Assembly: GCF_000008625.1 (NCBI RefSeq)
Contig: NC_000918.1
Coordinates: forward strand, 1,170,001-1,202,000
Direction: 5' to 3'
DNA: 32,000 nucleotides
From: Aquifex aeolicus VF5
GTDB lineage: Bacteria; Aquificota; Aquificia; Aquificales; Aquificaceae
This document shows positions 4,423 through 29,841 of the stretch, piece after piece. The translations under genes and the position numbers were made by a program. The notes under the pieces are model-generated. The model was not told the DNA's origin. It worked only from the letters and a program-made list of their open reading frames with translations, and ran no database searches. The stretch's first letter is position 1. Each line of letters opens with the position of its first letter.

Positions 4423-7400
4423 TTAGGATTCCTTCTTCTCTTCGGAGGATGCGGAAACCTCAGCTTTCTGTTTTTCGTACTCTTCCTTAGGAATAAAGAC
4501 GAACTCCCCGTCTTTGTAGTCCACAACTACCGTCATTCCGTCCTTGATTTCTCCTCTTATTATCTTGTCCGCGAGGGGTGTTTCCACGTACTTCTGAATT
4601 GTTCTCTTTAGAGGTCTCGCTCCGAATGCCGGGTCGTATCCTCTCCTTACGAGTTCTTTCTTTGCCTCTTCCGTGAGTTCTATCTTTATGTTCCTTTCAG
4701 CGAGTCTCTTGTTCACGTTTGCGATAAGGAGGTCTATTATCTTGGAGAGTTCTCTCATGGTGAGCGGTTTGAACACGATTATCTCGTCTATTCTGTTGAT
4801 GAATTCAGGTCTCATGTAGAGCTTGAGCTCTTCAAGAACCTTTTCCTTAGCCTTTTCGAATTCCCTATTGAGAGTTTCCTCATCCGCATCCACGGGAATG
4901 TTCAGGAGATACTGAGAACCTATGTTTGAGGTCATTATTATCACGGTGTTTCTAAAGTCTACCGTCCTTCCGTGGGAGTCCGTGAGTCTTCCATCGTCAA
5001 GCACTTGCAAGAAGAGGTCAAGAACTCTGGGGTGTGCCTTTTCTATTTCGTCAAGGAGTATTACTGAGTATGGTTTTCTCCTTACCGCTTCGGTGAGTTT
5101 TCCGCCCTCCTCGTATCCTACGTATCCCGGAGGTGCACCGATTAGCTTTGCCACGGAGTGCTCTTCCTTGAACTCGGACATATCAAGCCTGATTAGAGCG
5201 TCTTCATCTCCGAAGAGGAGTTCCGCAAGTGCCTTTGAGAGTTCCGTTTTACCTACACCCGTTGGTCCGAGGAACAGAAAGCTCGCTATGGGTCTCTTGG
5301 GATCCTTTAGTCCTGCTCTTGCCCTTCTGATTGCTTCCGCTACAGCTTTTACAGCGTGTTCTTGGTCAACGACTCTCTTGTGAAGTTCGTCTTCAAGTTT
5401 GAGAAGTTTTTGCATTTCCTCTTCTTTTAGTCTGGATACGGGTATTCCGGTCCACTCCGAAACTACTTCCGCAACGTCGTCCCACGTGACCACGAGTTCC
5501 TTGGACTTTTCCTGTTCTAACTTCTTGAGTTCCTTTTCTAGCTTAGCCTTTTCTATCTTGAGCTCAGCTTCCTTCTCATAATCGCCCTTTTCCGCGGCTT
5601 CCTTTATCTTCTCGTCAAGTTCCTCAATCTTCTTCTTGAGCTCGGCGATCTTAGCTTCTACTCCTCCTACCTTGCCGAGGAGTTCCTGCTTTTCCTTCTC
5701 AAGTTTAGCTTTCTCTATCTTGAGCTGTGCTTCTTTTTCGTAGTCGCCTTTTAGGTTAGCCTCTATTATCTGCTCTTCCAGAGCTTTTATCTTCCTCTCT
5801 ATTTCCTGTATTTCGGGGGGAGTTCCTATAACTTTTAGCTTTTTCCTTGCGGCAGCCTGGTCGAGGGCGTCTATCGCCTTGTCGGGAAGTCTCCTGAAGG
5901 TTACGTACCTCTTCGTGAGCTTTACAGCCGCTTCTATTGCTTCGTCGGAAATCTTTACCTTGTGGAACTGCTCAAGTCTTGGTCTCAGACCTTTTAGGAT
6001 TTCTATCGTCTGCTCTTCGGTTGGCTCGTCCACGAATACGGGCTGGAACCTTCTTTCAAGTGCCGGGTCCTTTTCTATGTACTTTCTGTACTCGTCAACG
6101 GTTGTAGCTCCGATTACCCTGATTTCTCCTCTAGCGAGTGCGGGCTTCATTATGTTTGCCGCGTCAACTGCACCTTCCGCAGCTCCCGCTCCCACTACGG
6201 TGTGTATTTCGTCTATGAAGAGTATTACGTTTCCTTTTTCCTTTACCTCGTCAAGGAGAGCTTTTAGTCTCTCTTCAAACTCACCCCTGTACTTAGAACC
6301 TGCGAGGAGTGATGCCATATCTATGGACCATATTTCCTTGTCCTGTAATTCTGGGGGGACTTCCTTGTTCACTATCCTTTGGGCGAGTCCTTCCACTATT
6401 GCGGTCTTACCGACTCCGGGGTCTCCCACGAGTACGGGGTTGTTTTTAGTTCTCCTTAGGAGTATTTCTATAACTTGGTTTATTTCCCTTTCCCTTCCTA
6501 TTACAGGGTCCAGTTTACCCTGCCTTGCGAGTTCGTTTAAGTTAACGCCGAAGCGCTCAAGGGGAGACTTTTCTTCTTCTTTGAGTTCTTGAGTGACGTC
6601 CTTCTTCATCTCTTTTTCACCTCCTAAAACTTGATTTATTAACTTACCACCTATGGTATCTTTTGCCTCAATTAAAGCCGCGGAAATGTGAGAAGGTTGA
6701 ACCTGAGCCTCTCCCTCGGATACAGCCTTGTCCTGAGCCTTTTCAAGAACCTGAGTCAGGTACTGACTGTAATCAAAGGTGGGTTTCTTTCCGAAAACCT
6801 TTTCCGCTACCTTGTCTATTATCCTGTCCGGAGAAATTCCAAGTTCCTTTACTTGTTCAATTAAGGGAGACTTTTCAAGGGCTTTTCTTATTAGACCATC
6901 TATGGAGAGTTTATTTTCAAGGAATGCCTTTACATCCTCGGGTGCAAATACGGTGGATAAGCTCTTTTCCACCTGCTCCAGTTGTCTCCTTATACTTTGT
7001 TCCGTTGCTTCGAGTTGTCTGAGTTCAAGTTCCAGAGTTTCAGCGGTCCACCAATCTCCGTATCTCCTTGCGTACTCAAGTTCCCTGAGTATCCTCTCCT
7101 TTGCCTTCCTTATTTTGGAGAGTTCCGTCTGGACGTTTCCTATGTTGGATTTTACTTCCATTATCTGGGTTCTCAGGTTTATTAGGTTCTGGGCTTCCGC
7201 TTCTATAGCCTTTTCAAGTTGCTTGTTGAGGTTTTCAAGGTATTCGCTCACCCTCTTTAAAAACTCCTTCCTGTCTATTCCCCTTTTCTCTATATATTTA
7301 GAAAGAGGAGATTTTTCGTCGAGGAGCAGGGCTATTAGAAGGTGATCCGTGTCCACCTTAGTGTCCTTGTTTTCCCTTGCTATTTCTTTCGCCTTTTCCA

Positions 7401-9921: not shown

Positions 9922-10711
9922 AAGGATAAGGGAAATAAAGGAAAAGGAACAGGAAGAATTAGTAAGGAAAATATCGGAACTACTAGCGCTCGAAAGAGAA
10001 CTCGAAAGGAAACTTGAAGAACTCCTAAGAGAATACGACAGAAAAAGCCAGAGTGTAAATACCTTGAACGAAATCTTCAAGTTAAAGGCCATAACTAGAA
10101 AAATAGAGGAAACCGTAGACTACTTGGAGGAATTGAACGTCAAAAAAGAGGAGCTAAAAGAAAAGTATCTGGAGTTAAAAGGTGAGATAAAGTCAATAGA
10201 GATACTGGAGGAGAGGAAAAAGAGGGAAAAAATCAAAAAGGAAATAGCGGTAAGCCTTCAAGAACTTGGATTTATGCATCTCGTAAAGAAGATAATTCCC
10301 GTTTTTTTTATGTTTTTCTCCTTCCTCTTTTCTGAAAGTGCCACACAAAAAGCATTAAAAGATAGCATTAACTTAAAAGAGGATTACAAGGTTCTCCTGA
10401 AGTTGATAGAGGAAAAGCTAAAAAAACTGGAAGAGGAGAGGAAAAAGCTCGAAGCCCTGCAAAAAACACCCTTGACGGAGGAGGAAAAGAAGAAACTGGA
10501 AAAGCTGATTAAATCCGTGGAGAAAGCCCCGGCGGACGAGATAGCTCCCGCTATAGAAAACCTTCCGCCCAAGTTAGCGGCGGAGATACTTCTGAGGATT
10601 AAGGAGAGGAAAGCAGGTCAGATACTCGCAAATATGAACCCTCAGAAGGCTTCAGAAATTATGAAGTACATACTTGAAAGAAATCCCAGCTTCAACGCTC
10701 AGGTAGATTGA
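9914..10711 (+). CDS. Coiled-coil (FliJ-like?) N-terminal part, one TM segment, and a C-terminal MgtE_N-type domain (YlxF/FlbB-like flagellar accessory protein)
   Basis: The C-terminus IAPAIENLPPKLAAEILLRIKERKAGQILANMNPQKASEIMKYIL matches the MgtE intracellular N-domain repeat. A hydrophobic segment KKIIPVFFMFFSFLFS lies mid-protein. The N-terminal 120 aa are charged coiled coil. Confidence 0.5.
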   Translation: MFKRIREIKEKEQEELVRKISELLALERELERKLEELLREYDRKSQSVNTLNEIFKLKAITRKIEETVDYLEELNVKKEELKEKYLELKGEIKSIEILEERKKREKIKKEIAVSLQELGFMHLVKKIIPVFFMFFSFLFSESATQKALKDSINLKEDYKVLLKLIEEKLKKLEEERKKLEALQKTPLTEEEKKKLEKLIKSVEKAPADEIAPAIENLPPKLAAEILLRIKERKAGQILANMNPQKASEIMKYILERNPSFNAQVD

Positions 10712-11771
10712 AGTACTTTAAGATAGCCCTGTAAATCGCGTAAGCGAACTTTTTCTGGAAGTGTCTGCTCCTTAACTTTCTAGCTTCGTAAGGGTTCGTT
10801 ATAAATCCGGCTTCTATTAAGACTGAGGGTATTCCAGGCGTCTTGAGGACTGCAAAGTTTGCCCTCTTTATCCCCTTAAAGCGGACGCTCCTTCTCATAG
10901 TTCTCTTTATCTCCCTTGCTAGTATCTTTGCAAAGTCAACGCTGTCCTCCAAAGTTACCCTGAAAGCGAGGTCTGAGATGATCAGCCTCAATTGTCTGTT
11001 CCTCGGATCTCCTCCCCTTATTATCTGCCCGGCGTAACTCAGGTCACTCAGGAGCTTGCTCTTCTTCTGTTTTGCACCTCTGTAAGAAAGGGCGAATATC
11101 TGAGTGCCCCTCGCGTAGGGTCTTCTCTTAGGTGCCGCGTCCGCGTGAATGCTTACAAAGAGGTGTGCCCTGTTCCTTATAGCTATCTGTGCCCTTTTCT
11201 CTAAAGGAACGAAGTAATCCCCCTTCCTCGTCATAATTACTCTAAACCTTCCGTCCCTTTTGAGGTAGTAAGCGAGATACTTCGCTATTTGAAAGTTTAC
11301 CCACTTCTCTTTTATTCCCCTCCAGCCTATGGCTCCGGGATCCTTCCCGCCGTGTCCCGCATCCACGACAACCGTAAACTTTCTCGGCTTTACTCTTATC
11401 CTTTTTTCCTTTATAAGATCAACAACGAGTCTGTCTGGATTCTTCAAGGTAAAGGCCCTTACTGAGTACTGTTTTTCCGGTTTTAAAACCACCCTCCTTC
11501 CCCACGGGTGCTTACCGAGTTTGTAAGAAATGCCCTTCGGCAGGCGAACTCTCTTTATCCTCACGTCCTTACCGAGAAGGTCTATTACTATCCTGTATGG
11601 TCTCTTTAAGACGAATATCCTGTACTTCGTCTCCTTTGATAGGTCAAAAACTACCCTTACCTTGTCTTTATGAATTCCGTGCCTTATTTTGACGAGATTC
11701 AGAGGGAAGGTAAAGCTTACAAAAAGTAAAAACAGTAAGACCTTAAAACTGGTCGAACTCCTTAGGAGCAC
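10692..11771 (-). CDS. N-acetylmuramoyl-L-alanine amidase (AMIN domain(s) + Amidase_3)
   Basis: A signal segment comes first. AMIN-like stretches are KDKVRVVFDL...YRIVIDLLG and PDRLVVDL. The catalytic motifs VVVDAGHGGKDPGAIG and FVSIHADA follow. A GTG start overlaps the upstream gene by 29 nt. Confidence 0.9.
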   Translation of the reverse strand: MLLRSSTSFKVLLFLLFVSFTFPLNLVKIRHGIHKDKVRVVFDLSKETKYRIFVLKRPYRIVIDLLGKDVRIKRVRLPKGISYKLGKHPWGRRVVLKPEKQYSVRAFTLKNPDRLVVDLIKEKRIRVKPRKFTVVVDAGHGGKDPGAIGWRGIKEKWVNFQIAKYLAYYLKRDGRFRVIMTRKGDYFVPLEKRAQIAIRNRAHLFVSIHADAAPKRRPYARGTQIFALSYRGAKQKKSKLLSDLSYAGQIIRGGDPRNRQLRLIISDLAFRVTLEDSVDFAKILAREIKRTMRRSVRFKGIKRANFAVLKTPGIPSVLIEAGFITNPYEARKLRSRHFQKKFAYAIYRAILKYFNLPER

Positions 11772-13401
11772 TGACTTCCTCCTCCACCTCTTCCTTCTTA
11801 GTAGCCCACGGAGCCAAAGGAAACTTTATCATCACGGGGTTGGGAATGTCTGGCTGGTAGAGTATCATCGTCCCCTTCTTTAGCATTATAGCCCTCTGTC
11901 TAAAGTTTCCGGTCAGGAACTCGTACTCTTTGCTGAGGACTTCACTGCTGTCAAGCCTTCCCGTTACCTTTACCGCTGCGTTAGCTACTATCCTCTTCTC
12001 AATTTCACTTGCAGTTTGCTGTGCTCCTATTAGTATAACTCCTAAACTCCTTCCTCTTTCCGCGATGTCGAGCAAGATTTCTTTTATGGGACTCCACTTG
12101 TCCTTAGGTGCGTATTTATTTAATTCGTCCAGAACGACGAAAATTTTAGGGTAGGGATTTCCCGTCTCTTCTTTTTCTCTGAATATCTTCTTGAGTATTG
12201 AACCAACAACGAACATTTTGGCTATACCGTGGAGATCCGATATGTCTATTACGTTGAGCTGGTGGGAGCGCCAATCTATGTGCCTGGATTTATTTCCGTG
12301 AACGAGGTGCTTGCAGTGGGAAGCGGCGTGGTGAAACCTCCTCAAAAAGGCGTATGCGGTTGCGGTTGCAGCCGTTCCGAACCACTCCCTGTAGCGGTCG
12401 GGATCTCTCTTCGTTTCCCTGTCTTCTATAACCTCGTGCAGGAGCTTTAAAAGATCCCCGAGAGAGTTTATCTCCTGACCGTTTTCGTCAAGTAGCACGT
12501 CTCCCGGGCTTTCCTTTGCAAGTTGCTGGAGTTTTTCTGAAACCCTGTCTATTACGTAGTGGAGTGAAGTCGCCCCTTCGTCTCCTTCCGCAAAGAGAAA
12601 CCTCAGTAATCCTTCCTGTGCAAAGTCCTTCATGGACCACTTGTAGGGAAATACCCCTTCCAGTCTCTCCCCCGAGGATGGGATCTCGCTCCACTCCTGT
12701 TCGGGAGGTGCCCAGAATGCAACGTTCTTGAAAGGTTCTGGCGGAAGACCCAGTTTTTCAAAAGCCTCTCTGTGTTCCTTAGTAAACCTCTTGTTCTTCT
12801 TGTCTATCCACAAAAGATCTTTTCCTTTTACGTTGAATATTATCCCGTGAATCTTTGTCCTGTCGTCCGCCTTCTGGAATATAGAGTATAGAAGGAATAG
12901 GGCGTAAGAAGTTTTTGTAGCAACTCCGGACATACCAGAAATTGATATGTGAGCCCCTTCCCTTCCGTTTATAAAGTCGTAATTGAGGTAAACAACCTCT
13001 CCGTTTCTCGTAAGCCCTGCGGGAATCTTCCTTTTCATATTGTCGTAGTAGAGGGCTTTTTCAAAGTCTATTCCCTCGGCTTTAAAGACGTAATCACCGG
13101 GTGTAGGAGGTATGAACACTTCTGGTTCTATACGGGTGACGGAAACCCTAGCCATGTAAGCCAAGTTTGCAGGAACGACCCCGCTATTTACAAGCTGGGC
13201 GTCATATACAAGTTCAACACCTTCCAGGTACTTTATAACTTCCTGAACGATCCCGTAGAACTTTATCTCCTCATTAGTTCCGTCTATTTTTGAATTAACT
13301 ACTACGACGTCGTCAAGTTGAAGGAATTTTCCCTTTTCTACCCCTACCCAGAACTCAAGGGGGTTTGAAGGCTTTGTTCCTAAAACTATTCCCACTTTCA
13401 T
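11743..13401 (-). CDS. HerA/FtsK-superfamily ATPase (DUF87-like) with an N-terminal barrel and a deviant Walker A
   Basis: The N-terminus is HAS-barrel-like (VGIVLG...FLQLDDVVVV...FYGIVQEV). The P-loop region is HISISGMSGVATKTS. Walker B is IFVVLDELNKYAP. The distal RGRSLGVILIGAQQ is also present. Confidence 0.7.
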   Translation of the reverse strand: MKVGIVLGTKPSNPLEFWVGVEKGKFLQLDDVVVVNSKIDGTNEEIKFYGIVQEVIKYLEGVELVYDAQLVNSGVVPANLAYMARVSVTRIEPEVFIPPTPGDYVFKAEGIDFEKALYYDNMKRKIPAGLTRNGEVVYLNYDFINGREGAHISISGMSGVATKTSYALFLLYSIFQKADDRTKIHGIIFNVKGKDLLWIDKKNKRFTKEHREAFEKLGLPPEPFKNVAFWAPPEQEWSEIPSSGERLEGVFPYKWSMKDFAQEGLLRFLFAEGDEGATSLHYVIDRVSEKLQQLAKESPGDVLLDENGQEINSLGDLLKLLHEVIEDRETKRDPDRYREWFGTAATATAYAFLRRFHHAASHCKHLVHGNKSRHIDWRSHQLNVIDISDLHGIAKMFVVGSILKKIFREKEETGNPYPKIFVVLDELNKYAPKDKWSPIKEILLDIAERGRSLGVILIGAQQTASEIEKRIVANAAVKVTGRLDSSEVLSKEYEFLTGNFRQRAIMLKKGTMILYQPDIPNPVMIKFPLAPWATKKEEVEEEVSAPKEFDQF

Positions 13402-13450: not shown

Positions 13451-16099
13451 CTAATTCAGTATTATTTTTGTGTTTAAAACTTTATTTTCCTCCCCGTCGG
13501 GTGGTGCCCAATGCGCATCCGGAGGCGTTTTTTCCACGGGAGACCACGGGTGTCCTTTCGGGATTATTATTTCCGAATCTTTTACAGTGTTAAACCTTGA
13601 ATAACCGCCGTGGAAGTTTACATCAACGAAAAAAGTGCAGTTTTTCACCACATTTCTCGAAGAAGCCCACTGAATTACAAAGTGCCTCACACCTTTTACG
13701 TAACACTTTACAAACACTATTCTGTGGGACTTGTAAATCCTGACGTATCCGTTTCCCCCTTTCCCTTTATTCCAGCTCCCGAAAGCTTTAAAGTTTTTAA
13801 CTTTAACACCGTAGCTGTTTTCAAGGCTAAGAGGATGACTACCTGCCATAAGCACCTTTACGTTTATAAGGGAACTCTCCGATACCCACCTGAGCCTAAT
13901 TCCATCAACTTTATACCCGGGAAACAAATTCTCGTAAACGTACTCAACTTCGCGCGGGTCGTGGTCAGGGACTTCCTGATAAAGTGTCAGGTTTTCTATC
14001 CTGACGTTCTTTACAAACTCAGGAGCGTAAACCACGCTGTTAGGAGGGTAATCTATCTCCACGGGTTCTGACAGAATAATCCTATTTCTGCGAACTTCCT
14101 CAACTCTGTAAATTCCCTGTCTCAAAAAAGGCTTTTCCTTTTTCCAGACCCTTGAGCCTATACTCTTCAAAAACTCCTCCGTATTAGGAGCACCTATCCA
14201 GACGTAATTGAGTTTTCCTTTTACTTCTCTGTCCAGAAGTAATTCACTTTCACCTTTTCTCACACCCTTTAACGTATAACCTAGCTTTTTTCCTTTACTC
14301 CCGGAAACCTCTATAACGCTTTTGTCTTCGCCCTTTATCTTTGAAATTATCAGAACCTTTCCTTTTCCTTTCAGCGTGATATTTGAAGTATTTATCTTTA
14401 CGGGTCTGTAAACGCAGTAAGTTCCCTGTTCTATGTAAATTTCATTTACTCCGCGTTTTAGTGCCATTTCAATTTTACTTTCCAGTCCTTCCTTGCAATC
14501 TTTTATTTCTGCAGAAAAGGCAAGTCCGGGCAAGGGCAGCGGACCGAACCTCGGGAGCTTGAAAACACCCACGTACAGCCCTACGAAGTATACGTAAAGA
14601 GTTATGTAAAGAACTATTAATCCGTACCTCAGCATAGTCCTGAGAGTTTTGAAACTGTGAATTTTTGCCTGTATTTCCTGTTTTGCGTGTTTAGCCCAAC
14701 TCTGTTTTGCTAAGTTTGATGAAGCGTAAATCTTCACTACTGAACCTACCCACTTGTCGTAAACTTGGAGAAGTAGGTGTAGTATGTGAGGTGTGAGGCG
14801 TGAAATAAAAAACAACCACGTCAATTGAAGCGTTCTTATCCATATTACCCATACCGCGTAAAAGACCCAGTAAAAGGGAGATATAAAGAGGGAGAGAAGG
14901 GTTGCACCTGTGGGCCCAACTAAACTCGTCCACATGGAAATCCTTTGATCCACTATAGCCCACCATATGAACCAGCTTCCTATTTTCTTCGGACCTAGCT
15001 TAATAGCCCTCCAGTTATTCCTGAGCATATTCCCGTACCACCTGAACATGAGGGATATAGAAATCTTAAAGAAGTTTCCGCTCCTTTCCTCCACAGACCA
15101 TGTGAGTGCGTCCGGAGCATAAAGCATATCCCAGCCGTTTTTCAGAAGGTAAAACCACGTACTTTTGTCGTCTCCCATCAAGAACCTGAACTTACCGAAC
15201 AGGTAATGCTCAAGTTTATCTGCTTCAACAAACCTTATGAATTCTTCATTCAATACTACATGAGCCCTGAATACGGAAAACCTCCCTGTTAAAGTCAGAA
15301 CTTTCCTGTAAAGGCTGTGGGACATCATCATCATGTGTCTTCTTGCGAACTTTAACCTGTACCAGAGCAGTAAGAGGAAGTTCTTTCCGATGTAGTGAAC
15401 CTCTTCATCGGTCGTTACCGCCGCTATTTTCGGAGAAAGTTTAAAGAGCGGAAGCGTTTTTTTGAGGACGTCCTTTCCCAAAACAGTATCCCCGTCCATG
15501 AACACTATAAGGTCATCCTTGTAATCCCTGTGGAAGTAAAGAGGGTGCGTAAAGTGTCTGGAAATGGCACGGAGGGTGTGTCCCATAGCTACCCTTTTAC
15601 CGAGCTCCTGATACAGAAATATGAGCTTTATCTTTTCCTTGTAGTCGTAAGCTCTAACTACCTGCTCAATGAAGTCCGCTTCCTTTTTAGACCCAACTGC
15701 TACGAATACGTAAACCTCAGATGGAATTTTGTAGCATTCCTGAACAAGGGACATGAAAACGATTTCCGAAACCCTTGGACTCTCTTTATAGGAGGGAATC
15801 ATGAAGTATAGCCTTCTGGGATAGGGATTTTTAACCTTCTTTAATATTCTCCTGTACTTGGGATACACGTAGAAGTTGTATATAAGGGCGTTTAGAGCGT
15901 TAATTGCAAACCACGTGTACCTCCATACACCTATCGCTGCTATGGCTAAAAAACCGTGAAACTTCAGGTCCCACGCTCTTCCCGGAAGTAAGGCGAGTAT
16001 TATGAAGGAAATCCCAAGCCAGAAGAACAGAAATAAAAGAAATTGGGGCCAAGATTTTGGAAAATCTTCTCTGGAGGAATAAGCGAGATTTGGTTTCAT
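13451..16099 (-). CDS. Alg8-like membrane family-2 glycosyltransferase (polysaccharide synthase) fused to a C-terminal periplasmic right-handed beta-helix domain
   Basis: N-terminal TM helices come first. GT2 motifs are LIVFMDGDTVLG, LTLTGRFSVFRA, FRFLMGDDKSTWF and LMFRWYGNMLRNN (the xxRW motif), plus VDQRISMWTS. More TM helices follow, then 356 aa of repeats such as NITLKGKG, VRIENLTLY, NVKVLMAG, VKVKNFKAFG, IVFVKCYVKG and VVKNCTFFVD. Confidence 0.75.
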   Translation of the reverse strand: MKPNLAYSSREDFPKSWPQFLLFLFFWLGISFIILALLPGRAWDLKFHGFLAIAAIGVWRYTWFAINALNALIYNFYVYPKYRRILKKVKNPYPRRLYFMIPSYKESPRVSEIVFMSLVQECYKIPSEVYVFVAVGSKKEADFIEQVVRAYDYKEKIKLIFLYQELGKRVAMGHTLRAISRHFTHPLYFHRDYKDDLIVFMDGDTVLGKDVLKKTLPLFKLSPKIAAVTTDEEVHYIGKNFLLLLWYRLKFARRHMMMMSHSLYRKVLTLTGRFSVFRAHVVLNEEFIRFVEADKLEHYLFGKFRFLMGDDKSTWFYLLKNGWDMLYAPDALTWSVEERSGNFFKISISLMFRWYGNMLRNNWRAIKLGPKKIGSWFIWWAIVDQRISMWTSLVGPTGATLLSLFISPFYWVFYAVWVIWIRTLQLTWLFFISRLTPHILHLLLQVYDKWVGSVVKIYASSNLAKQSWAKHAKQEIQAKIHSFKTLRTMLRYGLIVLYITLYVYFVGLYVGVFKLPRFGPLPLPGLAFSAEIKDCKEGLESKIEMALKRGVNEIYIEQGTYCVYRPVKINTSNITLKGKGKVLIISKIKGEDKSVIEVSGSKGKKLGYTLKGVRKGESELLLDREVKGKLNYVWIGAPNTEEFLKSIGSRVWKKEKPFLRQGIYRVEEVRRNRIILSEPVEIDYPPNSVVYAPEFVKNVRIENLTLYQEVPDHDPREVEYVYENLFPGYKVDGIRLRWVSESSLINVKVLMAGSHPLSLENSYGVKVKNFKAFGSWNKGKGGNGYVRIYKSHRIVFVKCYVKGVRHFVIQWASSRNVVKNCTFFVDVNFHGGYSRFNTVKDSEIIIPKGHPWSPVEKTPPDAHWAPPDGEENKVLNTKIILN

Positions 16100-17541
16100 C
16101 AGAAGAACCTCTTTATATATCTGATAATATAGGGCTCGTAATGCTTCGGTGTTATCTCCACCTCCGCTTTTATCCCGTGGTGTAGCTCCTGAGGATACTC
16201 GAAAAGTTCTATCTTCACGGGAACGTCCGGAAGGGCGTACTCTTCACTTTCCGATATCATACTCTCGTCTCCCAGAGCCTTCTTACCTATGGCAATTACT
16301 TTGCCTTCCACGGTCTTTTCTATACTCGGGAAGTAGACACGAGCTTTATCCCCTACGTTTATGTAAAGTACATCCCTCTTTTTAAACCTCGCAATTACGT
16401 AGCCCTTTTTCTCTAAACTCTCTATCACCATAACGGGCATACCCGGTGTGAGAATCTGTCCTTCCAAGTAGTAAACCGAAAGCACTATCCCGTCAAAGGG
16501 AGCCCTGTAAATCTCAAAGTTGTCCTCTTCATCCCCTCCTCCGCCACCCGCGTAAAAGCTGCCCAGCTCCTTAAGGAGTGTGTATAAGAAAGCCAGATAC
16601 CTCTCGTCGGCACTCTTTTCTTTTTCCAACTCCCTTAAGGACAGGAGAAGCTCTTTATACTCATTTTCTTTATCTTCGTACACACTCCTGCTTATGTACC
16701 CGAGCTCAAAGGCGCTTTTTGCTTTTTCAAGTTCTACTTTTAAACTTCTTAGGCGGAATCTAGTGGCTTTTATCCTTTCATCAAGCAGGGCTATCTTATT
16801 CTTAGTCTTCTCAATTTCCCTTAGTATGGCAGCCCTGTCTCTCAGTATCCTAACACCAACACCCCCGTATCCGTCCTTTTCATCCTCTATCCTTGAGGTC
16901 TTAAAAAGTACTTGATTTTTCCTTACTTCGTCCCCTTCCTTCACGTAAACCTTTTCGAGGATTGCCTCCCAAGGCGTGATTAGAGAAACTACGTTTCCCG
17001 AATAAAACGCATCAACACTGTAAGCTTTCGGCGTAGCCCAGAATACGAGGTAAAGCCCGAAAGCAAGGGCTAAGGCTATTAAAAGGTATACAAGTATCGC
17101 TATAAATAACTTCCTGTTTAGCCTTCTTTCCTCTTCTTCCGTTAAAGGTTCCTCTATAGGCGGTGGGACCATAAGGCGTTCAGCGGTACTCAGGAATTCA
17201 CCGAATTCTTCCAACCTCCCCTCTATGTAAGCCTGTACATACTTCTTTAAAATCTCTTTGGCTTCATCGGGCAGTTCCTTAAACTCAAAACCAGCCTGAT
17301 CTTCACTGCTCCACTTGTTTATAGCTTCAGCATTTATGGCAACGTTGAAACTTGCAAAGGGAAGTATGAACTTTACTTTGTAAACTTTGTCTTTTTCAAA
17401 TACATCCTCCTTACTTTTCTCTATCCTGAAACCTTCGTAGGACCAGTCGAGGACTTTGTACTCCTTTCCGTCAATTGAGACTTTTGCAGGTATTTTTAAT
17501 CTGTAAGTTTTTCGGAGGTGGGCGTCCTCAAATTCAGCCAT
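16099..17541 (-). CDS. Alg44-like protein: N-terminal PilZ domain, one TM helix, periplasmic HlyD-type membrane-fusion domain
   Basis: PilZ motifs are RKTYR (RxxxR) and DWSYEG (DxSxxG). The TM helix is LFIAILVYLLIALALAFGLYLVFW. A coiled-coil hairpin and HlyD-type barrel-sandwich motifs are present (YRAPFDGIVLSV, VGDKARVYF...VEGKVIAIG). The ATGA overlap at 16099 joins it to the synthase gene. Confidence 0.75.
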   Translation of the reverse strand: MAEFEDAHLRKTYRLKIPAKVSIDGKEYKVLDWSYEGFRIEKSKEDVFEKDKVYKVKFILPFASFNVAINAEAINKWSSEDQAGFEFKELPDEAKEILKKYVQAYIEGRLEEFGEFLSTAERLMVPPPIEEPLTEEEERRLNRKLFIAILVYLLIALALAFGLYLVFWATPKAYSVDAFYSGNVVSLITPWEAILEKVYVKEGDEVRKNQVLFKTSRIEDEKDGYGGVGVRILRDRAAILREIEKTKNKIALLDERIKATRFRLRSLKVELEKAKSAFELGYISRSVYEDKENEYKELLLSLRELEKEKSADERYLAFLYTLLKELGSFYAGGGGGDEEDNFEIYRAPFDGIVLSVYYLEGQILTPGMPVMVIESLEKKGYVIARFKKRDVLYINVGDKARVYFPSIEKTVEGKVIAIGKKALGDESMISESEEYALPDVPVKIELFEYPQELHHGIKAEVEITPKHYEPYIIRYIKRFF

Positions 17542-19078
17542 CCAAAATCCTCCTTATTATTTCTTCTTCTTTTATGTCCATAAAGTAGATTAACTTCTGT
17601 ATATAGACGTAGTTTATGTACTTGAGGTAAATTAATTGTTCAAGCCTGTGGTATGTATCGAGTAAGTTCCTGAGTATAAGCGTGTAATTTGCCTCTCTCA
17701 AGCCGTTTTTCCAGAAGTAAATTTCCCTTTCTATCTCTAAAAAATTCACGTTTATCTGCTCAAGATGGTTAACTATATTTGAATAATTCCTGTTTATTCT
17801 TGAAATATAATCGAAAAGGAAGGAATAAGTCGTGGCATACGAAAGACGAGCACGCTCTTTAAAGGAAAGAATTTCTAGTTTATCAACCTTACCCAGGTCC
17901 GTAATTATATAAGGAATAGGCAGTTCAAACCTGAGTCCTAATGCCCAGAAATCTCTGGTGTTTCCGTCCTTTCCAGCGAAGTAGTACCTTGCAAATACAT
18001 CAAGGTCCGTGTGTCTGAGGTAAAACCACTTATCCGTGGTCTTTATTTCAAACTTTTTCAGATACTCCTCCACATCCTTTTTCCTTTTTTCGTAGTACTT
18101 CATAAATTCCTCTACGTTTATCTTCATTGGCTTTAAAAAGAAGCCGTTACTTACACTCTCTATTCCCTCTAATTCCTCCTTTTTTATCAGTTCTCTGTAA
18201 GGAAATCCCAAACTTTTATCGTAGCTTTCCGTAAATTTCACCCAGTCCTTTAATAAACTTAAGGTTTTATTCTTTTCACTTTCTACAACTCCCAGTTCGT
18301 ACTTCAGTCCTTTTAAAAATACCTCTTCCTGACTCTGAAAAGCCAGTAAGTAGGTGTACTCCTTTTGTATGTCAAATTCGGAAAATAGTTTTGCAAACTT
18401 TGCTCTTTCCTTTTCGTACTTAAAGTCTGCAAATCCCCTCCTGAAGAAGGAAAGTTTAAGTCCCAAATAACTGTACCACTTGTCCCCCAGGAGATTTTCC
18501 CCCGTTAAAGCCTTTCCCCTGTACCTGAACTCTCCGTTTATATACAGAGGAAAGGCTCTCTTGTAACTCTTTTCTTTCTGTTTGTACATCTCTACAACGG
18601 TGCTCTCTAACTTTTCAAAGGGCTTAACTTTTGTGGTGTTCCCTCTTGCAATAATTTCAGTTAATTTCTTCAGCTCCTCTATATTCTTTTCAAGAAGCAT
18701 TAAGAAGTTTTCCTTTGTAGTTTTACTTTCTTCAATTTCCTGTTGCTCGAGGGTTATCACCTTTTCAGGCTTGGGAAATACAACCCTACTTAGGTCATAT
18801 TCGCACACTCTTACAAAAGCATCTCTATATTTCTCCTTTATTTCGGGCAAAATTTTTAAAACGTCACTCTTATTTAAGTAAAACCCTATTCTGAGGGTGT
18901 AAAATCCACCTATTTTTTCAATTCTTACGTTGTCCATGTTTTTAAATTTTTCAAACAAAGGTATTAGATCTTCTAATTTTTCGGAAGAAGCTACTTGAAC
19001 GCAGTAGTAATTTTCTGATCTTGCAACGGATATGGTTATTAACAAAAGTAATAGAGAAAGAAGCACCCTTTTTCTCAT
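17534..19078 (-). CDS. Secreted SPOR-like domain + TolC-like outer-membrane channel protein
   Basis: The signal peptide is RKRVLLSLLLLLITISVARS. The SPOR-like block is YYCVQVASSEKLEDLIPLF...GGFYTLRIGFYLNKSDVLKILPEIKEKY. Two strand pairs (LYINGEFRYRGK/WYSYLGLKLSFF and LDVFARYYFAGK/FWALGLRFELPIP) are separated by long helical stretches, as in TolC repeats. The ATG at 19078 sits behind GGTGGGGG and is preferred over the GTG at 19087. It overlaps the downstream gene by 8 nt. Confidence 0.55.
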   Translation of the reverse strand: MRKRVLLSLLLLLITISVARSENYYCVQVASSEKLEDLIPLFEKFKNMDNVRIEKIGGFYTLRIGFYLNKSDVLKILPEIKEKYRDAFVRVCEYDLSRVVFPKPEKVITLEQQEIEESKTTKENFLMLLEKNIEELKKLTEIIARGNTTKVKPFEKLESTVVEMYKQKEKSYKRAFPLYINGEFRYRGKALTGENLLGDKWYSYLGLKLSFFRRGFADFKYEKERAKFAKLFSEFDIQKEYTYLLAFQSQEEVFLKGLKYELGVVESEKNKTLSLLKDWVKFTESYDKSLGFPYRELIKKEELEGIESVSNGFFLKPMKINVEEFMKYYEKRKKDVEEYLKKFEIKTTDKWFYLRHTDLDVFARYYFAGKDGNTRDFWALGLRFELPIPYIITDLGKVDKLEILSFKERARLSYATTYSFLFDYISRINRNYSNIVNHLEQINVNFLEIEREIYFWKNGLREANYTLILRNLLDTYHRLEQLIYLKYINYVYIQKLIYFMDIKEEEIIRRILDG

Positions 19079-19110
19079 AACCCCCACCTGATTGTATTAA
19101 TCTTAATACT

Positions 19111-19527
19111 ATGCTCAAGGTAAAAAAAGAAGTCCTTGAGAAAATGATAAAGCAGGCGGAAAGGGATTACCCTTACGAGACGTGCGGGTTGCTGATAGGA
19201 AAGTCAGAAGGAGGTATAAGGATAGCTTACGAGGCTTTTGAAACCCCTAATGCGAACCCCGATAGAAAACACGACAGGTACGAAATAGCTCCAAAGGACT
19301 ACATGAGGGCGGAAGATTACGCAATTTCAAAAGGTATGGAAATAGTAGGTGTTTATCACTCTCATCCGGACCACCCCGACAGACCTTCTCAGTTTGATCT
19401 GCAAAGGGCATTTCCCGACCTGTCCTACATAATTTTCTCAGTCCAGAAGGGAAAAGTAGCCTCTTACAGGAGCTGGGAACTGAAAGGTGATAAGTTCGAG
19501 GAAGAAGAGGTAGAGGTTTTCGAGTAA
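19111..19527 (+). CDS. JAMM/MPN+ metalloprotease (Mov34/Mec+ family)
   Basis: The glutamate region is YPYETCGLLIG. The JAMM motif is complete: HSHPDHPDRPSQFD (HxHx7SxxD). Confidence 0.85.
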   Translation: MLKVKKEVLEKMIKQAERDYPYETCGLLIGKSEGGIRIAYEAFETPNANPDRKHDRYEIAPKDYMRAEDYAISKGMEIVGVYHSHPDHPDRPSQFDLQRAFPDLSYIIFSVQKGKVASYRSWELKGDKFEEEEVEVFE

Positions 19528-22070: not shown

Positions 22071-23654
<1,584 letters not shown>

Positions 23655-23711
23655 ATAACGGAGACAAAAGCTCCCCACAAAAGGGGAGCTCATCCCTGTC
23701 TAGTGCATATA

Positions 23712-23744
23712 AAAGGAGGAGAGGCTCACCCTCTACTCAGTTGC
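23712..23744 (+). repeat. 3' arm of the 16S rRNA processing helix
   Basis: AAAGGAGGAGAGGCTCACCCTCTACTCAGTTGC is the reverse complement of 21973..22005. Confidence 0.85.
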
Positions 23745-23759
23745 TCCCCTTGCAAAGCA

Positions 23760-23833
23760 GGGCCTCTAGCTCAGCTGGTTAGAGCGTGCCCCTGATAAGG
23801 GCAAGGTCCCAGGTTCGAGTCCTGGGAGGCCCA
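23760..23833 (+). tRNA. tRNA-Ile (anticodon GAT), CCA not encoded
   Basis: The sequence is GGGCCTCTAGCTCAGCTGGTTAGAGCGTGCCCCTGATAAGGGCAAGGTCCCAGGTTCGAGTCCTGGGAGGCCCA. The anticodon loop is CTGATAA. Confidence 0.95.
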
Positions 23834-23849
23834 TATTAGGGGCACCTTC

Positions 23850-23922
23850 GGGGGTGTAGCTCAGCTGGGAGAGCGCCTGCTTTGCAAGCAGGAGGTCGTG
23901 GGTTCGAGTCCCACCACCTCCA
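23850..23922 (+). tRNA. tRNA-Ala (anticodon TGC), CCA not encoded
   Basis: The sequence is GGGGGTGTAGCTCAGCTGGGAGAGCGCCTGCTTTGCAAGCAGGAGGTCGTGGGTTCGAGTCCCACCACCTCCA. The G3:U70 identity pair is present and the anticodon loop is TTTGCAA. Confidence 0.95.
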
Positions 23923-23933
23923 CTTGGCTCCTT

Positions 23934-23966
23934 GTCAACAGAATAAAGCCTGTACCTCCTCCCGCC

Positions 23967-23977
<11 letters not shown>
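23934..23977 (+). repeat. 5' arm of the 23S rRNA processing helix
   Basis: GTCAACAGAATAAAGCCTGTACCTCCTCCCGCCGGTGTGCAAGT pairs with 26915..26958 over 44 positions. The only deviations are two G-U wobbles. Confidence 0.85.
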
Positions 23978-26914
<2,937 letters not shown>

Positions 26915-26925
<11 letters not shown>

Positions 26926-26958
26926 GGTGGGAGGAGGTACAGGCTTTATTCTGTTGAC
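26915..26958 (+). repeat. 3' arm of the 23S rRNA processing helix
   Basis: ACTTGCACGCCGGTGGGAGGAGGTACAGGCTTTATTCTGTTGAC is the reverse complement of 23934..23977. Confidence 0.85.
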
Positions 26959-26963
26959 GGATT

Positions 26964-27085
26964 GCCCCTGGTGGCCATAGCGGGGGGGAAACACCCGGTC
27001 CCATTCCGAACCCGGCAGTTAAGCCCCCCAGCGCCGATGATACTGTGCCGGCAGCGGCACGGGAAAGTAGGTCGCTGCCAGGGGC
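26964..27085 (+). rRNA. rrf: 5S ribosomal RNA
   Basis: The sequence runs GCCCCTGGTGGCCATAGCGGGGGGGAAACACCCGGTCCCATTCCGAACCCGGCAGTTAAGCC...GGGAAAGTAGGTCGCTGCCAGGGGC. The terminal helix GCCCCTGG/CCAGGGGC closes it. Confidence 0.93.
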
Positions 27086-27108
27086 TTTTAATTTAATTTA
27101 TTTAGAAA

Positions 27109-27185
27109 GGGCCCGTAGCTCAGTTGGATAGAGCAGGGGATTTCTAATCCCCAGGTCGGGGGTTCGAGTCCCTCCGGGCCCACCA
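27109..27185 (+). tRNA. tRNA-Arg (anticodon TCT), 3' CCA encoded
   Basis: The sequence is GGGCCCGTAGCTCAGTTGGATAGAGCAGGGGATTTCTAATCCCCAGGTCGGGGGTTCGAGTCCCTCCGGGCCCACCA. The anticodon loop is TTTCTAA. Confidence 0.93.
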
Positions 27186-27189
27186 CTGG

Positions 27190-28440
27190 TTATTCAACTT
27201 TTATTAAAACTTCCTTTCCCTCAAATTCCAATCCTTCAATCAGTAATTTGTAATTCTTAAAATCCCTTAAATATTTTTTCTTGGTGATTACGTAATCACC
27301 TTTCTTAAATTTATTTTCTTTTGTTATACACCTGTAAAGGTAAGCTACTATTGCCGAGTTTTCATGTTTGTAAAAGTACAGTTTTTGAGGTTCGCTGTTT
27401 TTCAAGAAGTCTACCGCCTTAGGTGTAAACCTTTTCTGTTCGTAAATATAAACTCCAAACATCAGTATTAATAATAAGAAACTTCCAACTATGTAAGCAT
27501 ATTTTATGTACCTTTTTGTTAAGTAAAAACCAATAATAACGGATAGTGCCGGGTATGAAAATAAGATATAATGGTGAAGTTTATTTTTAGAAAGTGAGTA
27601 AAACACTAAAACCAAGAGAAACCATCCTGCGAAAGGAAGAAGTCTTTTATCAAAATCTTTAAGAATTTTTAGAAAAACAGGTAAAAATAAAATAGATGAA
27701 ACTAAAATCACTAAAGGATAAAAGTAAATGGGCATGTTGTGGATTTGATAGGTTCCTGTAAATCTGTAAATGTTTTCAAATATGAAAAACTTAAAGAAGA
27801 AATTGAAACCAAACTTGTAAATCATTAAAAAGTACCAAGAAAATCCTATCAAAATAAAAAGCAGTACTCCCTTAAAATTCAAGAACTTTAAATCTCTCCT
27901 CCAGAGGAGATAAATTCCTATTGGTAGGATAACGCCTACAGGCCCTTTTGTTAAAAACGCTAAGGCCAAGGCTGTCCATCCGAGAGTGAACCTATCTATT
28001 GAAAATAAGTAAACTCCTAAAGTGGAGAAAAATACGAGGGTAAATTCTGGGACGTAAGCCCTTGACTCTATCCACGTGTGAATAAATAGAGGAAATGTAA
28101 GAGCGGAAAGTAAAGCTTTTTCCCTTGAAACGTGTTTTAAAGTTATGAAATAAATAAGAAGCGTTGTGCCAAAAGCAGAAAGTCCGGAAATTAATCTGGC
28201 GGAGAATTCAGAAATGCCGAAAATTAAAAAGCTTAAACTTCCCAGCCAGTAAAGCATAGGAGGCTTTTCAAATCTGTAGTTACAGTTATAGTATGGAACT
28301 ATGAAATCACCGGTCCTTAACATGTGAAGTGTGGCGTAAAAGTTTCTCCCTTCGTCAAGGGAAGTCAAGGATAAAATCCAGTTTCCGAAAATGAAGAATA
28401 CAAAAGAAACGAGCGAAATAAGGAAAAGATCCTTTTTCAT
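27190..28440 (-). CDS. Polytopic membrane glycosyltransferase of the ArnT/PMT (GT39/GT83-like) type
   Basis: There are about 10 or more hydrophobic segments. The N-terminal loop motif [39 protein letters not shown] is typical of ArnT/PMT_2 enzymes that use lipid-linked sugar donors. The gene is very AT-rich. Confidence 0.75.
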
Positions 28441-29330
28441 TTAGCCTTTTCTTTTTTTGGTTCTTCTTTAATCAATCCTCTAATAAACTCGATAAGTTCA
28501 CCGTTTATATCTTCCCTTCTTAAAGCAAAGGATATAACCGTTTTCAGATAATCTTTAGGATTTCCCGTGTCGTATACCGTGTTATTAACCTTGCAGGCGT
28601 ATATCGCCTCCTCCTCAAGTAAGAGTCTCATGGCGTCGGTTAACTGTATCTCTCCTCCTTTACCTGGCTTTGTAACCTTTAGTTTTTCAAAAATGGTAGG
28701 TGTGAATATGTACCTTCCAACTATCGCAAGGTTGGAAGGAGCCTCTTCGGGAGAGGGTTTTTCGACCAGATCTACAATTATATAAGTTTCTTCGTCCAAT
28801 TTTTTTACTTTTGCTATACCGTACTTTGAGACTTCTTCCTTTGGAACTTCCATCAATGCTACGATTGAGTTTCCGAACTTCCTGAACAAATGTATCATCT
28901 TTTTAAGTTCTTCCTCTTCGTTCTCCACGATTATGTCTCCTAAGGCAACAAAGAAGGGTTCCTGTGATACGGCTGGTTCAGCCATGAGAACGGCATGTCC
29001 GAGTCCTAATTGCTCTTTTTGCCTTACGTAAATCGGGTTAATAAGGCTCGAAATTTTTACAACTTCTCTCAGTAATTTCTCTTTTCCAGCTTTTTTTAAG
29101 TGCTCTTCCAGCTCGTGGTTGTGGTCAAAGTGATCCTCTATCGCTTTCTTGTGTCTACCTGTGACGAAAATGATGTTTTCAATACCTATGTTGATAAAGG
29201 ATTCGACTATGAACTGGATTATTGGTTTGTCAATTATGGGGAGCATTTCCTTAGGCATTGCCTTTGTAGCAGGCAAAAACCTCGTTCCCCACCCCGCAAC
29301 GGGAAGAACAACCTTTCTAATTTCTCTCAT
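28437..29330 (-). CDS. galU: UTP-glucose-1-phosphate uridylyltransferase
   Basis: The signature LPVAGWGTRFLPATKAMPKEMLPIIDKP is present, together with LGLGHAV and VEKP. The ATG at 29330 sits behind GGAGGTG and is preferred over the GTG at 29336. Confidence 0.93.
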   Translation of the reverse strand: MREIRKVVLPVAGWGTRFLPATKAMPKEMLPIIDKPIIQFIVESFINIGIENIIFVTGRHKKAIEDHFDHNHELEEHLKKAGKEKLLREVVKISSLINPIYVRQKEQLGLGHAVLMAEPAVSQEPFFVALGDIIVENEEEELKKMIHLFRKFGNSIVALMEVPKEEVSKYGIAKVKKLDEETYIIVDLVEKPSPEEAPSNLAIVGRYIFTPTIFEKLKVTKPGKGGEIQLTDAMRLLLEEEAIYACKVNNTVYDTGNPKDYLKTVISFALRREDINGELIEFIRGLIKEEPKKEKAK

Positions 29331-29841
29331 ACACACCTCCCTTGGAATATTTTAAAGAAATAATACCGCAAATAATTCCAATCAGAGCTCCTACAAAAAC
29401 GTCCAGAGGAAAGTGAACACCCGCGTAAATCCTCTCATACCCTATTAGGAAAGCGTATAAGAAGAGTATTGCCTTTATATGGAGTTTTTCACCATGTGAC
29501 AGTACAGTTGCTATCGTAAAAGCCATAGCGGTGTCTCCTGAGGGAAAGGAACGCCAGTGTAAAGGAAAAAGTAAGTTTACATCCTCGAGTAAAATTGCAG
29601 GTCTCGGCTGGTTGAAAAATGTTTTTAGAGAGATCACTAAAACTGTTTCCAAAATTATCGCTAAAATCAAAGGCTTTACTTTTTCCTTTCTGAAAATAAA
29701 AAGAAAGATTAATAAAGGAAACAGTACATAGCCCGAACCGAGGTAAGCAAAGTGAGTAAAGAAAACGTCCAGAAGTGGATGCCTCGCATTGTTTATCAAA
29801 CGAAAAAGTTCAAGGTTTAGAGCAAAGTCTTCTATTACCAT
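29317..29841 (-). CDS. PAP2-family membrane phosphatase (LpxE/LpxF/undecaprenyl-diphosphatase-like)
   Basis: Three motifs are present: KTFFNQPRP (Kx6RP), PSGD (the PSGH position) and [12 protein letters not shown] (SRx5Hx3D-like). The protein is small and polytopic. Confidence 0.85.

Follow-up and report, generated by a model that had tools for sequence, protein, structure and literature searches.

An Aquifex aeolicus operon that may couple an Alg8-type synthase to a TolC-like channel: a candidate c-di-GMP-gated exopolysaccharide secretion system

Alg44, the partner of the alginate synthase Alg8 in Pseudomonas, has a periplasmic domain that has long been likened to MexA and HlyD, and to our knowledge mechanistic work on synthase-dependent polysaccharide secretion has dealt almost entirely with Proteobacteria. 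Here we analyse an operon of Aquifex aeolicus VF5 that encodes relatives of both proteins; it lies in a window of 32,000 nucleotides, the whole stretch of DNA that was analysed (contig NC_000918.1, positions 1,170,001 to 1,202,000). Every known synthase-dependent system includes a periplasmic hydrolase or lyase (PMC8892547). Two described systems depart from the familiar outer-membrane routes: in Thermosynechococcus, according to the summary of Maeda 2018 in PMC8892547, HlyD-like and TolC-like proteins replace BcsB and BcsC, and in Sinorhizobium meliloti TolC is required for the production of mixed-linkage β-glucan by BgsA/BgsB, for which a tripartite complex has been proposed (PMC13438883). 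A 2020 survey of exopolysaccharide operons recorded environmental bacteria with 'atypical' alginate operons that have lost algKE and algGXLIJF (PMC7112194), and the Alg44 architecture was not found in any protein when cyanobacteria were surveyed (PMC4594306). In the literature that we searched, no paper joined Alg8 with Aquifex or Desulfovibrio, none dealt with such Alg8-like/Alg44-like systems and none joined SPOR with TolC. A preliminary description of this DNA, made from its sequence alone, held that the combination seen here had not been characterised. This is so for the Alg8/Alg44-type family; the design itself has been proposed on genetic grounds for the Thermosynechococcus cellulose and Sinorhizobium glucan systems, and the atypical operons are on record (PMC7112194).

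We find that the Aquifex operon probably encodes a synthase-dependent system for exopolysaccharide secretion, self-contained and reaching across the whole cell envelope. A scan for open reading frames (ORFs) identified three genes at 17534-19087, 16099-17541 and 13451-16099, all on the minus strand and overlapping head to tail, as the preliminary description had placed them, and their products match three A. aeolicus VF5 entries in the protein database exactly (O67596, O67595 and O67594, for genes 1, 2 and 3, respectively). Synthase, adaptor and channel-like genes are all present, translationally coupled at both junctions and conserved together in relatives. The genes and their junctions are as follows.

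17534..19087, minus strand: gene 1, SPOR-domain outer-membrane factor (predicted TolC-fold channel), 517 aa from GTG 19087; ORF and O67596
16099..17541, minus strand: gene 2, protein with a PilZ domain, a transmembrane helix and a membrane-fusion (periplasmic adaptor) domain, 480 aa; O67595
13451..16099, minus strand: gene 3, Alg8-type processive GT2 synthase with a fused β-helix, 882 aa; aq_1684, O67594
17534..17541, minus strand: junction 1, gene 1 stop and gene 2 start within the 8-nt overlap ATGGCTGA; from the sequence
16097..16101, minus strand: junction 2, TGATG, gene 2 stop and gene 3 start with one base (16099) in common; from the sequence

The 8-nt overlap ATGGCTGA at 17534..17541 was found just as first reported. 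The second junction had been given as an ATGA overlap of four nucleotides; coupling at 16099 stands, but the overlap is a single nucleotide within TGATG, and despite this genes 2 and 3 are still tightly coupled. The true start of gene 1 is likely ATG 19078 rather than GTG 19087, because a GGTGGGGG ribosome-binding site lies ahead of it and the resulting length of 514 aa is that of the NCBI record.

The synthase is the firmest point of contact with alginate biosynthesis. Authentic Pseudomonas loci were retrieved with an Alg8 probe sequence, and every comparison was made on the retrieved DNA; in the reference locus (L023, P. monachiensis), algD, alg8, alg44, algK, algE, algG, algX and algL were identified by Pfam. 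The comparison set for the GT2 domain comprised Alg8, BcsA and PgaC. Three segments of the protein are relevant here and below.

14687..16027, minus strand: Alg8-homologous core, residues 25-471, with DGD at 202-204, GDDKS at 309-313 and LMFRW at 351-355; BLASTP against Pseudomonas Alg8
14555..14632, minus strand: last transmembrane helix, residues ~490-515, which would take the chain to the periplasmic side; hydropathy, with the orientation taken from the Alg8/BcsA-type layout
13454..14539, minus strand: right-handed parallel β-helix, residues 521-882 (362 residues); AlphaFold2 (AF2) model and Foldseek

The product of gene 3 matches Pfam Glyco_tranf_2_3 (E 1e-59), and its residues 25-471 align with residues 15-454 of Pseudomonas Alg8 at 36% identity (E 6e-81, BLASTP). 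All of the motifs for which a likeness to Alg8 had been asserted do align with the real Pseudomonas protein: IGVWRY, DGDTVL, LKFARRH, LTLTGRFSVFRA, FRFLMGDDKSTWF, LMFRWYGN, DQRISMWTS and KIY...QSW. Among 114 relatives, the DXD, GDDKS and LxxRW motifs are at least 90% conserved. The match to E. coli PgaC is far weaker (E 8e-6), BcsA gives no significant match and scores against the NodC and PgaC family models fall far under their cut-offs. Judged by sequence, the Aquifex synthase is Alg8-type, as had been proposed, because it matches Alg8 strongly, PgaC at only E 8e-6 and BcsA not significantly. The genetic setting is a different one: only an alg44-like gene is linked to the synthase gene, the other genes of the window are unrelated to the reference alg operon, and among window ORFs of at least 150 aa no AlgK-, AlgE-, AlgX-, AlgL- or AlgD-like gene was found, in line with the preliminary description.

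The adaptor encoded by gene 2 is composed of the following segments.

17233..17514, minus strand: cytoplasmic PilZ domain, residues 10-103, with RxxxR as R10KTYR14 and DxSxxG as D32WSYEG37; Pfam PilZ
17026..17124, minus strand: single transmembrane helix, residues ~140-172; hydropathy peak 2.92
16516..16896, minus strand: probable α-helical hairpin, residues ~216-342, between the lipoyl halves; from position, length and EmrA/HlyD profiles
16153..16515, minus strand: second lipoyl half and β-barrel (HlyD_D23/HlyD_3), residues ~343-463; Pfam, NCBIfam and a weak match to HlyD chain 8dck_C

Pfam matches to PilZ (1e-6), HlyD_D23 (6e-9) and HlyD_3 (2e-8), together with matches to the lipoyl halves, define this architecture, and the protein also matches the EmrA, HlyD, MdtN and DevB family models in an NCBIfam/profile scan. 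Searching the sequences of the PDB with the adaptor returned a weak HlyD match only; the same searches returned nothing for the channel protein and nothing for the synthase. The PilZ domain is 26% identical with that of Alg44 (E 8e-8), and the alignment brings together both motifs, which in Alg44 are the c-di-GMP-binding motifs R17xxxR and D44xSxxG (PMC8892547). RxxxR is kept in 54 of 55 related adaptors and DxSxxG in 53. The claim that gene 2 has the architecture of Alg44 therefore stands for the PilZ domain, the one transmembrane helix, the HlyD domain and the motifs, but not for an insert of ~128 residues that Alg44 lacks. This insert between the lipoyl halves is 128 aa long in Aquifex and ranges over 108-164 aa among the full set of 55 relatives; Pseudomonas Alg44 has 33 aa at the site. 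In canonical adaptors the site of the insert holds the α-helical hairpin that docks onto TolC. The docking motif at the hairpin tip is RLS/RLT (PMC3391258); the residues at the corresponding positions of the presumed Aquifex tip are K273, A277 and S284, and across the family the same columns hold L in 49 of 55 sequences, S or T in 49 and R in 18.

Gene 1 encodes the candidate outer-membrane channel, with three segments.

19016..19078, minus strand: predicted signal peptide MRKRVLLSLLLLLITISVARS, a hydrophobic N-terminus without a lipobox cysteine; putative cleavage site
18809..19015, minus strand: SPOR (peptidoglycan-binding) domain, residues 25-93; Pfam SPOR
17537..18769, minus strand: TolC-like part, residues ~107-517; AF2 model and Foldseek

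That the protein is secreted and carries a SPOR-like module, as first noted, is borne out by the hydrophobic signal peptide and by a Pfam SPOR match of E 1.3e-7 (32.2 bits against a cut-off of 21). The AF2 monomer model (mean predicted local distance difference test, pLDDT, of 75), built on an alignment of ~7 full-length relatives, places the SPOR domain first; a long linker helix leads from it to a twofold repeat in which a β-hairpin (181-213, 361-388) is followed by long helices (219-287, 392-503). All 38 of the best Foldseek matches to this model (E <= 0.001; 2e-10 to 2e-6) are outer-membrane factors aligned over ~440 columns, among them TolC, CusC, SilC, CmeC, OprM, OprN, VceC and MtrE; the SPOR structures of CwlC and DamX were also matched, ranked after the TolC-family channels. 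The TolC layout claimed for gene 1 is thus upheld by the modelled fold and its 38 best matches, but not by any Pfam OEP match: in our assessment it is supported at the level of the fold and not at that of the sequence.

The channel family is a divergent one. An exhaustive HMMER search recovered ~7 full-length relatives, the other matches being to the SPOR domain only, and word-indexed homologue searches recovered only three relatives of the channel protein and three of the adaptor. Among 60 family members, 13 match Pfam OEP (best 7.4e-8) and seven match SPOR. The members fall into two subfamilies; hhalign between the two gave no significant result, and they are bridged by ORFs that match the hidden Markov models (HMMs) of both, a link that the Pfam OEP matches also support. 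Elsewhere in the window, at 2557-3765 on the plus strand, a canonical OEP gene (Pfam E 4e-20, 402 aa) lies behind a thioredoxin-like gene (2063-2557, plus strand). On this Pfam assignment, A. aeolicus has an ordinary, recognisable TolC homologue besides the divergent, SPOR-bearing channel predicted for the operon.

The third unusual feature is the domain fused to the synthase. The extra β-helix of the preliminary description is confirmed as a confident fold over residues ~521-882 (AF2 pLDDT 94.8, predicted TM-score 0.92), and its predicted location is periplasmic. Its best Foldseek matches are phage tailspike depolymerases, the Klebsiella K1 capsule lyase, GH110, the AlgE4/AlgE6 mannuronan epimerases and a PL6 alginate lyase. 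Of the pectate-lyase-like β-helix families (PF12708/PF13229), PF12708 matches the β-helix domains of 14 of 20 relatives at E <= 0.1 (best 3.6e-9), and the Aquifex domain falls below the Pfam threshold (14.4 bits against 27). Across 20 diverse sequences, 30 positions of the β-helix are invariant, for example N639, R660, Y722, N777-K778, R805-H806, Q810-W811, H830 and H850 in full-length numbering, and this invariance suggests an active enzyme. We considered whether the domain is a homologue of AlgG and rejected this, as the similarity is not significant. The simplest reading, drawn by analogy, is that the periplasmic processing function of such systems is here fused to the synthase as a lyase, hydrolase or epimerase.

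We examined how far this arrangement extends beyond Aquifex. The ~890-aa synthase architecture has at least 1671 relatives (E <= 0.001), whose sources include Aquificota, Desulfovibrio and its kin, Desulfogranum, Desulfobulbaceae, Sulfurimonas and Sulfurospirillum. Several of them are labelled 'Alg8' or 'mannuronan synthase' in IMG, and UniProt names O67594 (aq_1684) an 'alginate synthesis-related protein'. An alginate-type core in such an organism was first called unexpected; as far as the databases go, the gene is no surprise, given this name and the number of relatives. We assembled 87 loci, seven by exact look-up and 80 from metagenomes by β-helix alignment, called ORFs on them and ran three sets of HMM searches against these, for the adaptor and for each of the two families of channel-like proteins. 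In all 55 of the loci that extend at least 1.5 kb upstream of the synthase gene, the gene directly upstream is that of the adaptor. A channel-like gene adjoins the pair in 64 of 69 informative loci, in one of three placements: upstream on the same strand, which is the Aquifex order (16 loci), downstream on the same strand (13) or downstream and convergent (35). We take this linkage to point to a functional trio, since its persistence through three gene orders speaks for selection on function and against inherited synteny, and the trio is conserved in many genomes.

Several observations on individual loci accompany these counts. One of the five loci without an adjacent channel-like gene is a Maridesulfovibrio genome; by analogy with the Bgs system, such loci may use a channel encoded elsewhere. 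A 459-aa neighbour in Sulfurimonas was considered as a channel gene and rejected. Seven loci with a convergent channel gene (L001, L094, L098, L104, L105, L115 and L122) have a further ORF of ~230-260 aa on the same strand as the synthase gene and ~1.7-2.1 kb downstream of it. These ORFs match the Aquifex channel HMM with E values of 1e-5 to 1e-9, probably through a SPOR-like domain; if so, a separate protein may supply peptidoglycan binding where the channel has no SPOR domain. In one Aquificota relative (L003), a MASE8-GGDEF diguanylate-cyclase gene (10679-11899, plus strand) begins 18 nt after the synthase gene. ORFs with a GGDEF motif occur in the fetched flanks of only five of the 87 loci, and directly adjacent in one, so we rejected such a gene as a regular neighbour. 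In a Sulfurimonas locus (L001), a nucleotide-sugar dehydrogenase gene (5313-6482, minus strand) is divergent from the adjoining adaptor gene, with a TPR protein and a second GT2 nearby. The best model for this dehydrogenase is UDP-glucose 6-dehydrogenase (687.6 bits, below the 757-bit cut-off), which hints at a glucuronate-containing polymer, although this dehydrogenase gene may instead be part of an adjacent cluster.

Taken together, the homologies, motifs, folds and gene linkage support a trans-envelope, c-di-GMP-gated machine, for which we propose the following mechanism. The Alg8-type GT2 synthase, by homology with Alg8, would build the chain from a nucleotide-sugar precursor on the cytoplasmic side and thread it through its own membrane channel. 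The PilZ domain of the adaptor, in which both binding motifs are seen, would sense c-di-GMP and activate the synthase, the part that Alg44 plays for Alg8. Through its insert, the adaptor could form an oligomer round the emerging chain and dock tip to tip on the TolC-fold protein, which would substitute for the scaffold AlgK and the porin AlgE. The channel would be tethered to peptidoglycan by its N-terminal SPOR domain, near the level at which adaptor and channel meet; such a tether fits with AcrAB-TolC, in which peptidoglycan lies at the AcrA-TolC junction (PMC8892547). The fused β-helix, placed in the periplasm beside the exit, would cleave or modify the chain, replacing the separate lyase, hydrolase or epimerase of known systems (AlgL/AlgG, BcsZ, PelA, PgaB). 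No ABC, RND or MFS transporter gene was found in the operon or its flanks, where the genes are housekeeping ones, and because the operon has none the synthase is the only candidate for an inner-membrane partner. Our best guess for the polymer is a uronic-acid-containing (alginate-like) chain, based on the likeness of the synthase to Alg8 and on the lyase-like and epimerase-like relatives of the β-helix.

Not all of the evidence points towards such a secretion system. The Aquifex channel protein has SPOR as its sole Pfam match, with no match to OEP; profile searches and hhalign comparisons of the channel alignments with E. coli TolC were not significant; and the monomer model is of moderate quality, at a pLDDT of 75 and a TM-score of 0.4-0.5 to TolC. 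The hairpin fold of the adaptor is putative, and its tip motif is degenerate in Aquifex, with K/A/S in place of R/L/S. The β-helix was placed in the periplasm from hydropathy and analogy, no algD/algA-like precursor gene stands beside the operon among the window ORFs, and five of the 69 loci with enough flanking sequence (L002, L097, L109, L114 and L143) have no adjacent channel-like gene. Some of these points would be expected if the gene 1 product were instead a SPOR-anchored coiled-coil envelope protein that resembles TolC in its monomer model only, the polymer staying in the periplasm or leaving it by some other way. The missing Pfam OEP match, the lack of any significant sequence-profile match to solved TolC-family chains and a root-mean-square deviation of ~8-13 Å from TolC structures, in a model of pLDDT 75, are all consistent with this view. 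We nevertheless find it quite improbable, given that the 38 best Foldseek matches (E <= 0.001) are outer-membrane factors without exception over ~440 columns, that both β-hairpins fall at the expected places, that 13 of 60 relatives reach Pfam OEP (best 7e-8) and that the adaptors of the family keep the TolC-docking L and S/T tip positions. Less probable still is an ordinary efflux or type I secretion pump made up of the adaptor, the TolC-like protein and a transporter encoded elsewhere, the first two being merely co-transcribed with an unrelated glycosyltransferase. TolC-fold proteins do normally work for ABC, RND or MFS pumps, and the adaptor does match the EmrA, HlyD, MdtN and DevB models; a pump adaptor of this kind, however, would have to account for an Alg44-like PilZ domain and for a place directly upstream of an Alg8-type synthase gene at 55 of 55 loci. 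The channel gene stays with this pair in three gene orders, there is no transporter gene in the operon or its flanks, and ordinary pumps have the separate canonical OEP gene at 2557-3765 of the window.

The alternative that deserves most attention concerns the product rather than the route. The operon could encode a true alginate system, which makes polymannuronate from GDP-mannuronate, uses the β-helix as a C5-epimerase or lyase and differs from Pseudomonas in its export route only. The synthase keeps all of the Alg8 catalytic motifs and resembles Alg8 over nearly its whole length, IMG applies the names 'mannuronan synthase' and 'Alg8' to relatives, and the β-helix fold resembles the AlgE4/AlgE6 epimerases and the PL6 alginate lyase. 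Against this, identity with Alg8 reaches only 33-37%, and GT2 enzymes this far apart often differ in donor specificity; the window contains no gene for GDP-mannose dehydrogenase, and the single dehydrogenase gene seen near a related locus fits the UDP-glucose 6-dehydrogenase type, at a score under the model cut-off. The β-helix has no significant similarity to AlgG, and its AlgE-type matches are weak and confined to the N-terminal cap. We therefore regard a true alginate system as unlikely, and continue to prefer a secretion system whose polymer may be alginate-like.

The operon is preceded by one promoter-like sequence.

19091..19118, minus strand: promoter-like candidate TTGAGC-16-TACAAT, just upstream of the operon and inside the 5' end of a divergent JAB-domain gene; consensus scan

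Promoter and terminator scans of the region gave site counts not above those in shuffled sequence, and because such sites are no commoner here than in shuffled sequence we treat this one as a candidate only. Downstream, 49 nt beyond the synthase gene, two overlapping minus-strand genes at 11743-13401 and 10692-11771 form a HerA-like HAS-barrel ATPase/AmiC-type amidase pair, the amidase being an AmiC-type N-acetylmuramoyl-L-alanine amidase with an AMIN domain. AmiC-type amidases make denuded glycan strands, the ligand of SPOR domains. A small envelope-glycan cluster at 27190-29841 (minus strand) encodes a PMT_2-type glycosyltransferase, a sugar-phosphate nucleotidyltransferase and a PAP2 phosphatase; it lies ~8 kb from the operon, past the rRNA genes. 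These occupy 22071-27182 (plus strand) as an operon of 16S, two tRNAs, 23S, 5S and a further tRNA, with 16S-23S-5S at 22071-27083, and this complete rRNA operon explains a block of 62-65% G+C in a genome of ~43% G+C. Near the start of the window, a 293-aa ORF at 1185-2066 (plus strand) carries at its C-terminus a HepT-like ribonuclease toxin domain (E 1.6e-20).

If our reading is correct, the locus offers a compact, three-gene version of a machine that combines polymerisation, c-di-GMP sensing and processing of the polymer with a route across the periplasm and out through the outer membrane. It links Alg44 to adaptors with a full-length insert at the hairpin site. Being thermostable, its proteins should be tractable for structural work on how a glycan is handed over from a synthase to a TolC-type tunnel and, as a second structural question, on how c-di-GMP bound to the adaptor gates this hand-over. 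The operon is also a candidate matrix polymer system for the chemolithoautotrophs that dominate vent and sediment biofilms. We raise, as a tentative proposal, a broader possibility: that such loci represent a sixth, widespread class of synthase-dependent machine, in which an Alg8-type synthase is plugged into a dedicated, SPOR-anchored adaptor-channel duct with a built-in processing enzyme, c-di-GMP acts on the adaptor and not on the synthase, and a new polymer serves as biofilm matrix for the Aquificota, Campylobacterota and Desulfobacterota of hydrothermal vents and sediments.

Comparison with known systems places the Aquifex locus between two traditions. With Pseudomonas alginate biosynthesis it shares a synthase that is homologous over nearly the full length of Alg8 and has the same catalytic motifs, an adaptor that runs from PilZ through one transmembrane helix to a HlyD-like domain and carries RxxxR and DxSxxG, and the adjacency of adaptor and synthase genes. 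It differs in that the window has no genes for AlgK, AlgE, AlgG, AlgX, AlgL, AlgI/J/F or AlgD; in the ~128-aa insert of its adaptor, against 33 aa in Alg44; in a predicted TolC-fold outer-membrane protein where Pseudomonas has the AlgE porin and the AlgK scaffold; in the β-helix fused to the synthase; and in gene order, as alg8 precedes alg44 in Pseudomonas whereas the adaptor gene precedes the synthase gene in Aquifex. The tripartite pumps AcrAB-TolC, MacAB-TolC and HlyBD-TolC resemble it from the other side, since the Aquifex adaptor joins a lipoyl domain and a β-barrel to an insert where pump adaptors have their hairpin, the L and S/T positions of RLS fall at the presumed tip in its family, and its putative partner has the TolC fold. 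Here, however, the inner-membrane partner would be a glycosyltransferase/translocase rather than an ABC, RND or MFS transporter, the adaptor bears a cytoplasmic PilZ domain and the channel an N-terminal SPOR domain.

Two polysaccharide systems come closer to the whole design. The three genes of the XcsA/XcsB/XcsC cellulose system of Thermosynechococcus vulcanus are reportedly not in one operon. As that system is summarised in PMC8892547, it too combines a GT2 synthase with a HlyD-like adaptor and a TolC-like exporter in place of a TPR/porin route, under c-di-GMP control and in a thermophilic host; its synthase is BcsA-type with a PilZ domain of its own, and the same summary describes neither a β-helix fusion nor a SPOR domain on the channel. 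In the BgsA/BgsB system with TolC, as predicted for Aquifex, the adaptor gene is co-transcribed with that of a GT2 synthase, which in this case is activated by c-di-GMP, and genetics shows that the TolC channel is required. There, however, c-di-GMP binds the C-terminal domain of BgsA and not the adaptor, and the channel is a housekeeping TolC encoded elsewhere, whereas Aquifex has a dedicated gene; nor is the Bgs synthase Alg8-type, and no fused processing domain has been described for it. The design of a GT2 synthase with a HlyD-type adaptor and a TolC-type channel is thus already known in principle. What the Aquifex locus adds to these cases is the Alg8/Alg44 lineage of its core, a c-di-GMP receptor carried by an adaptor whose insert is of full length, a dedicated channel gene that is highly divergent and often includes a SPOR domain, and a processing domain fused to the synthase.

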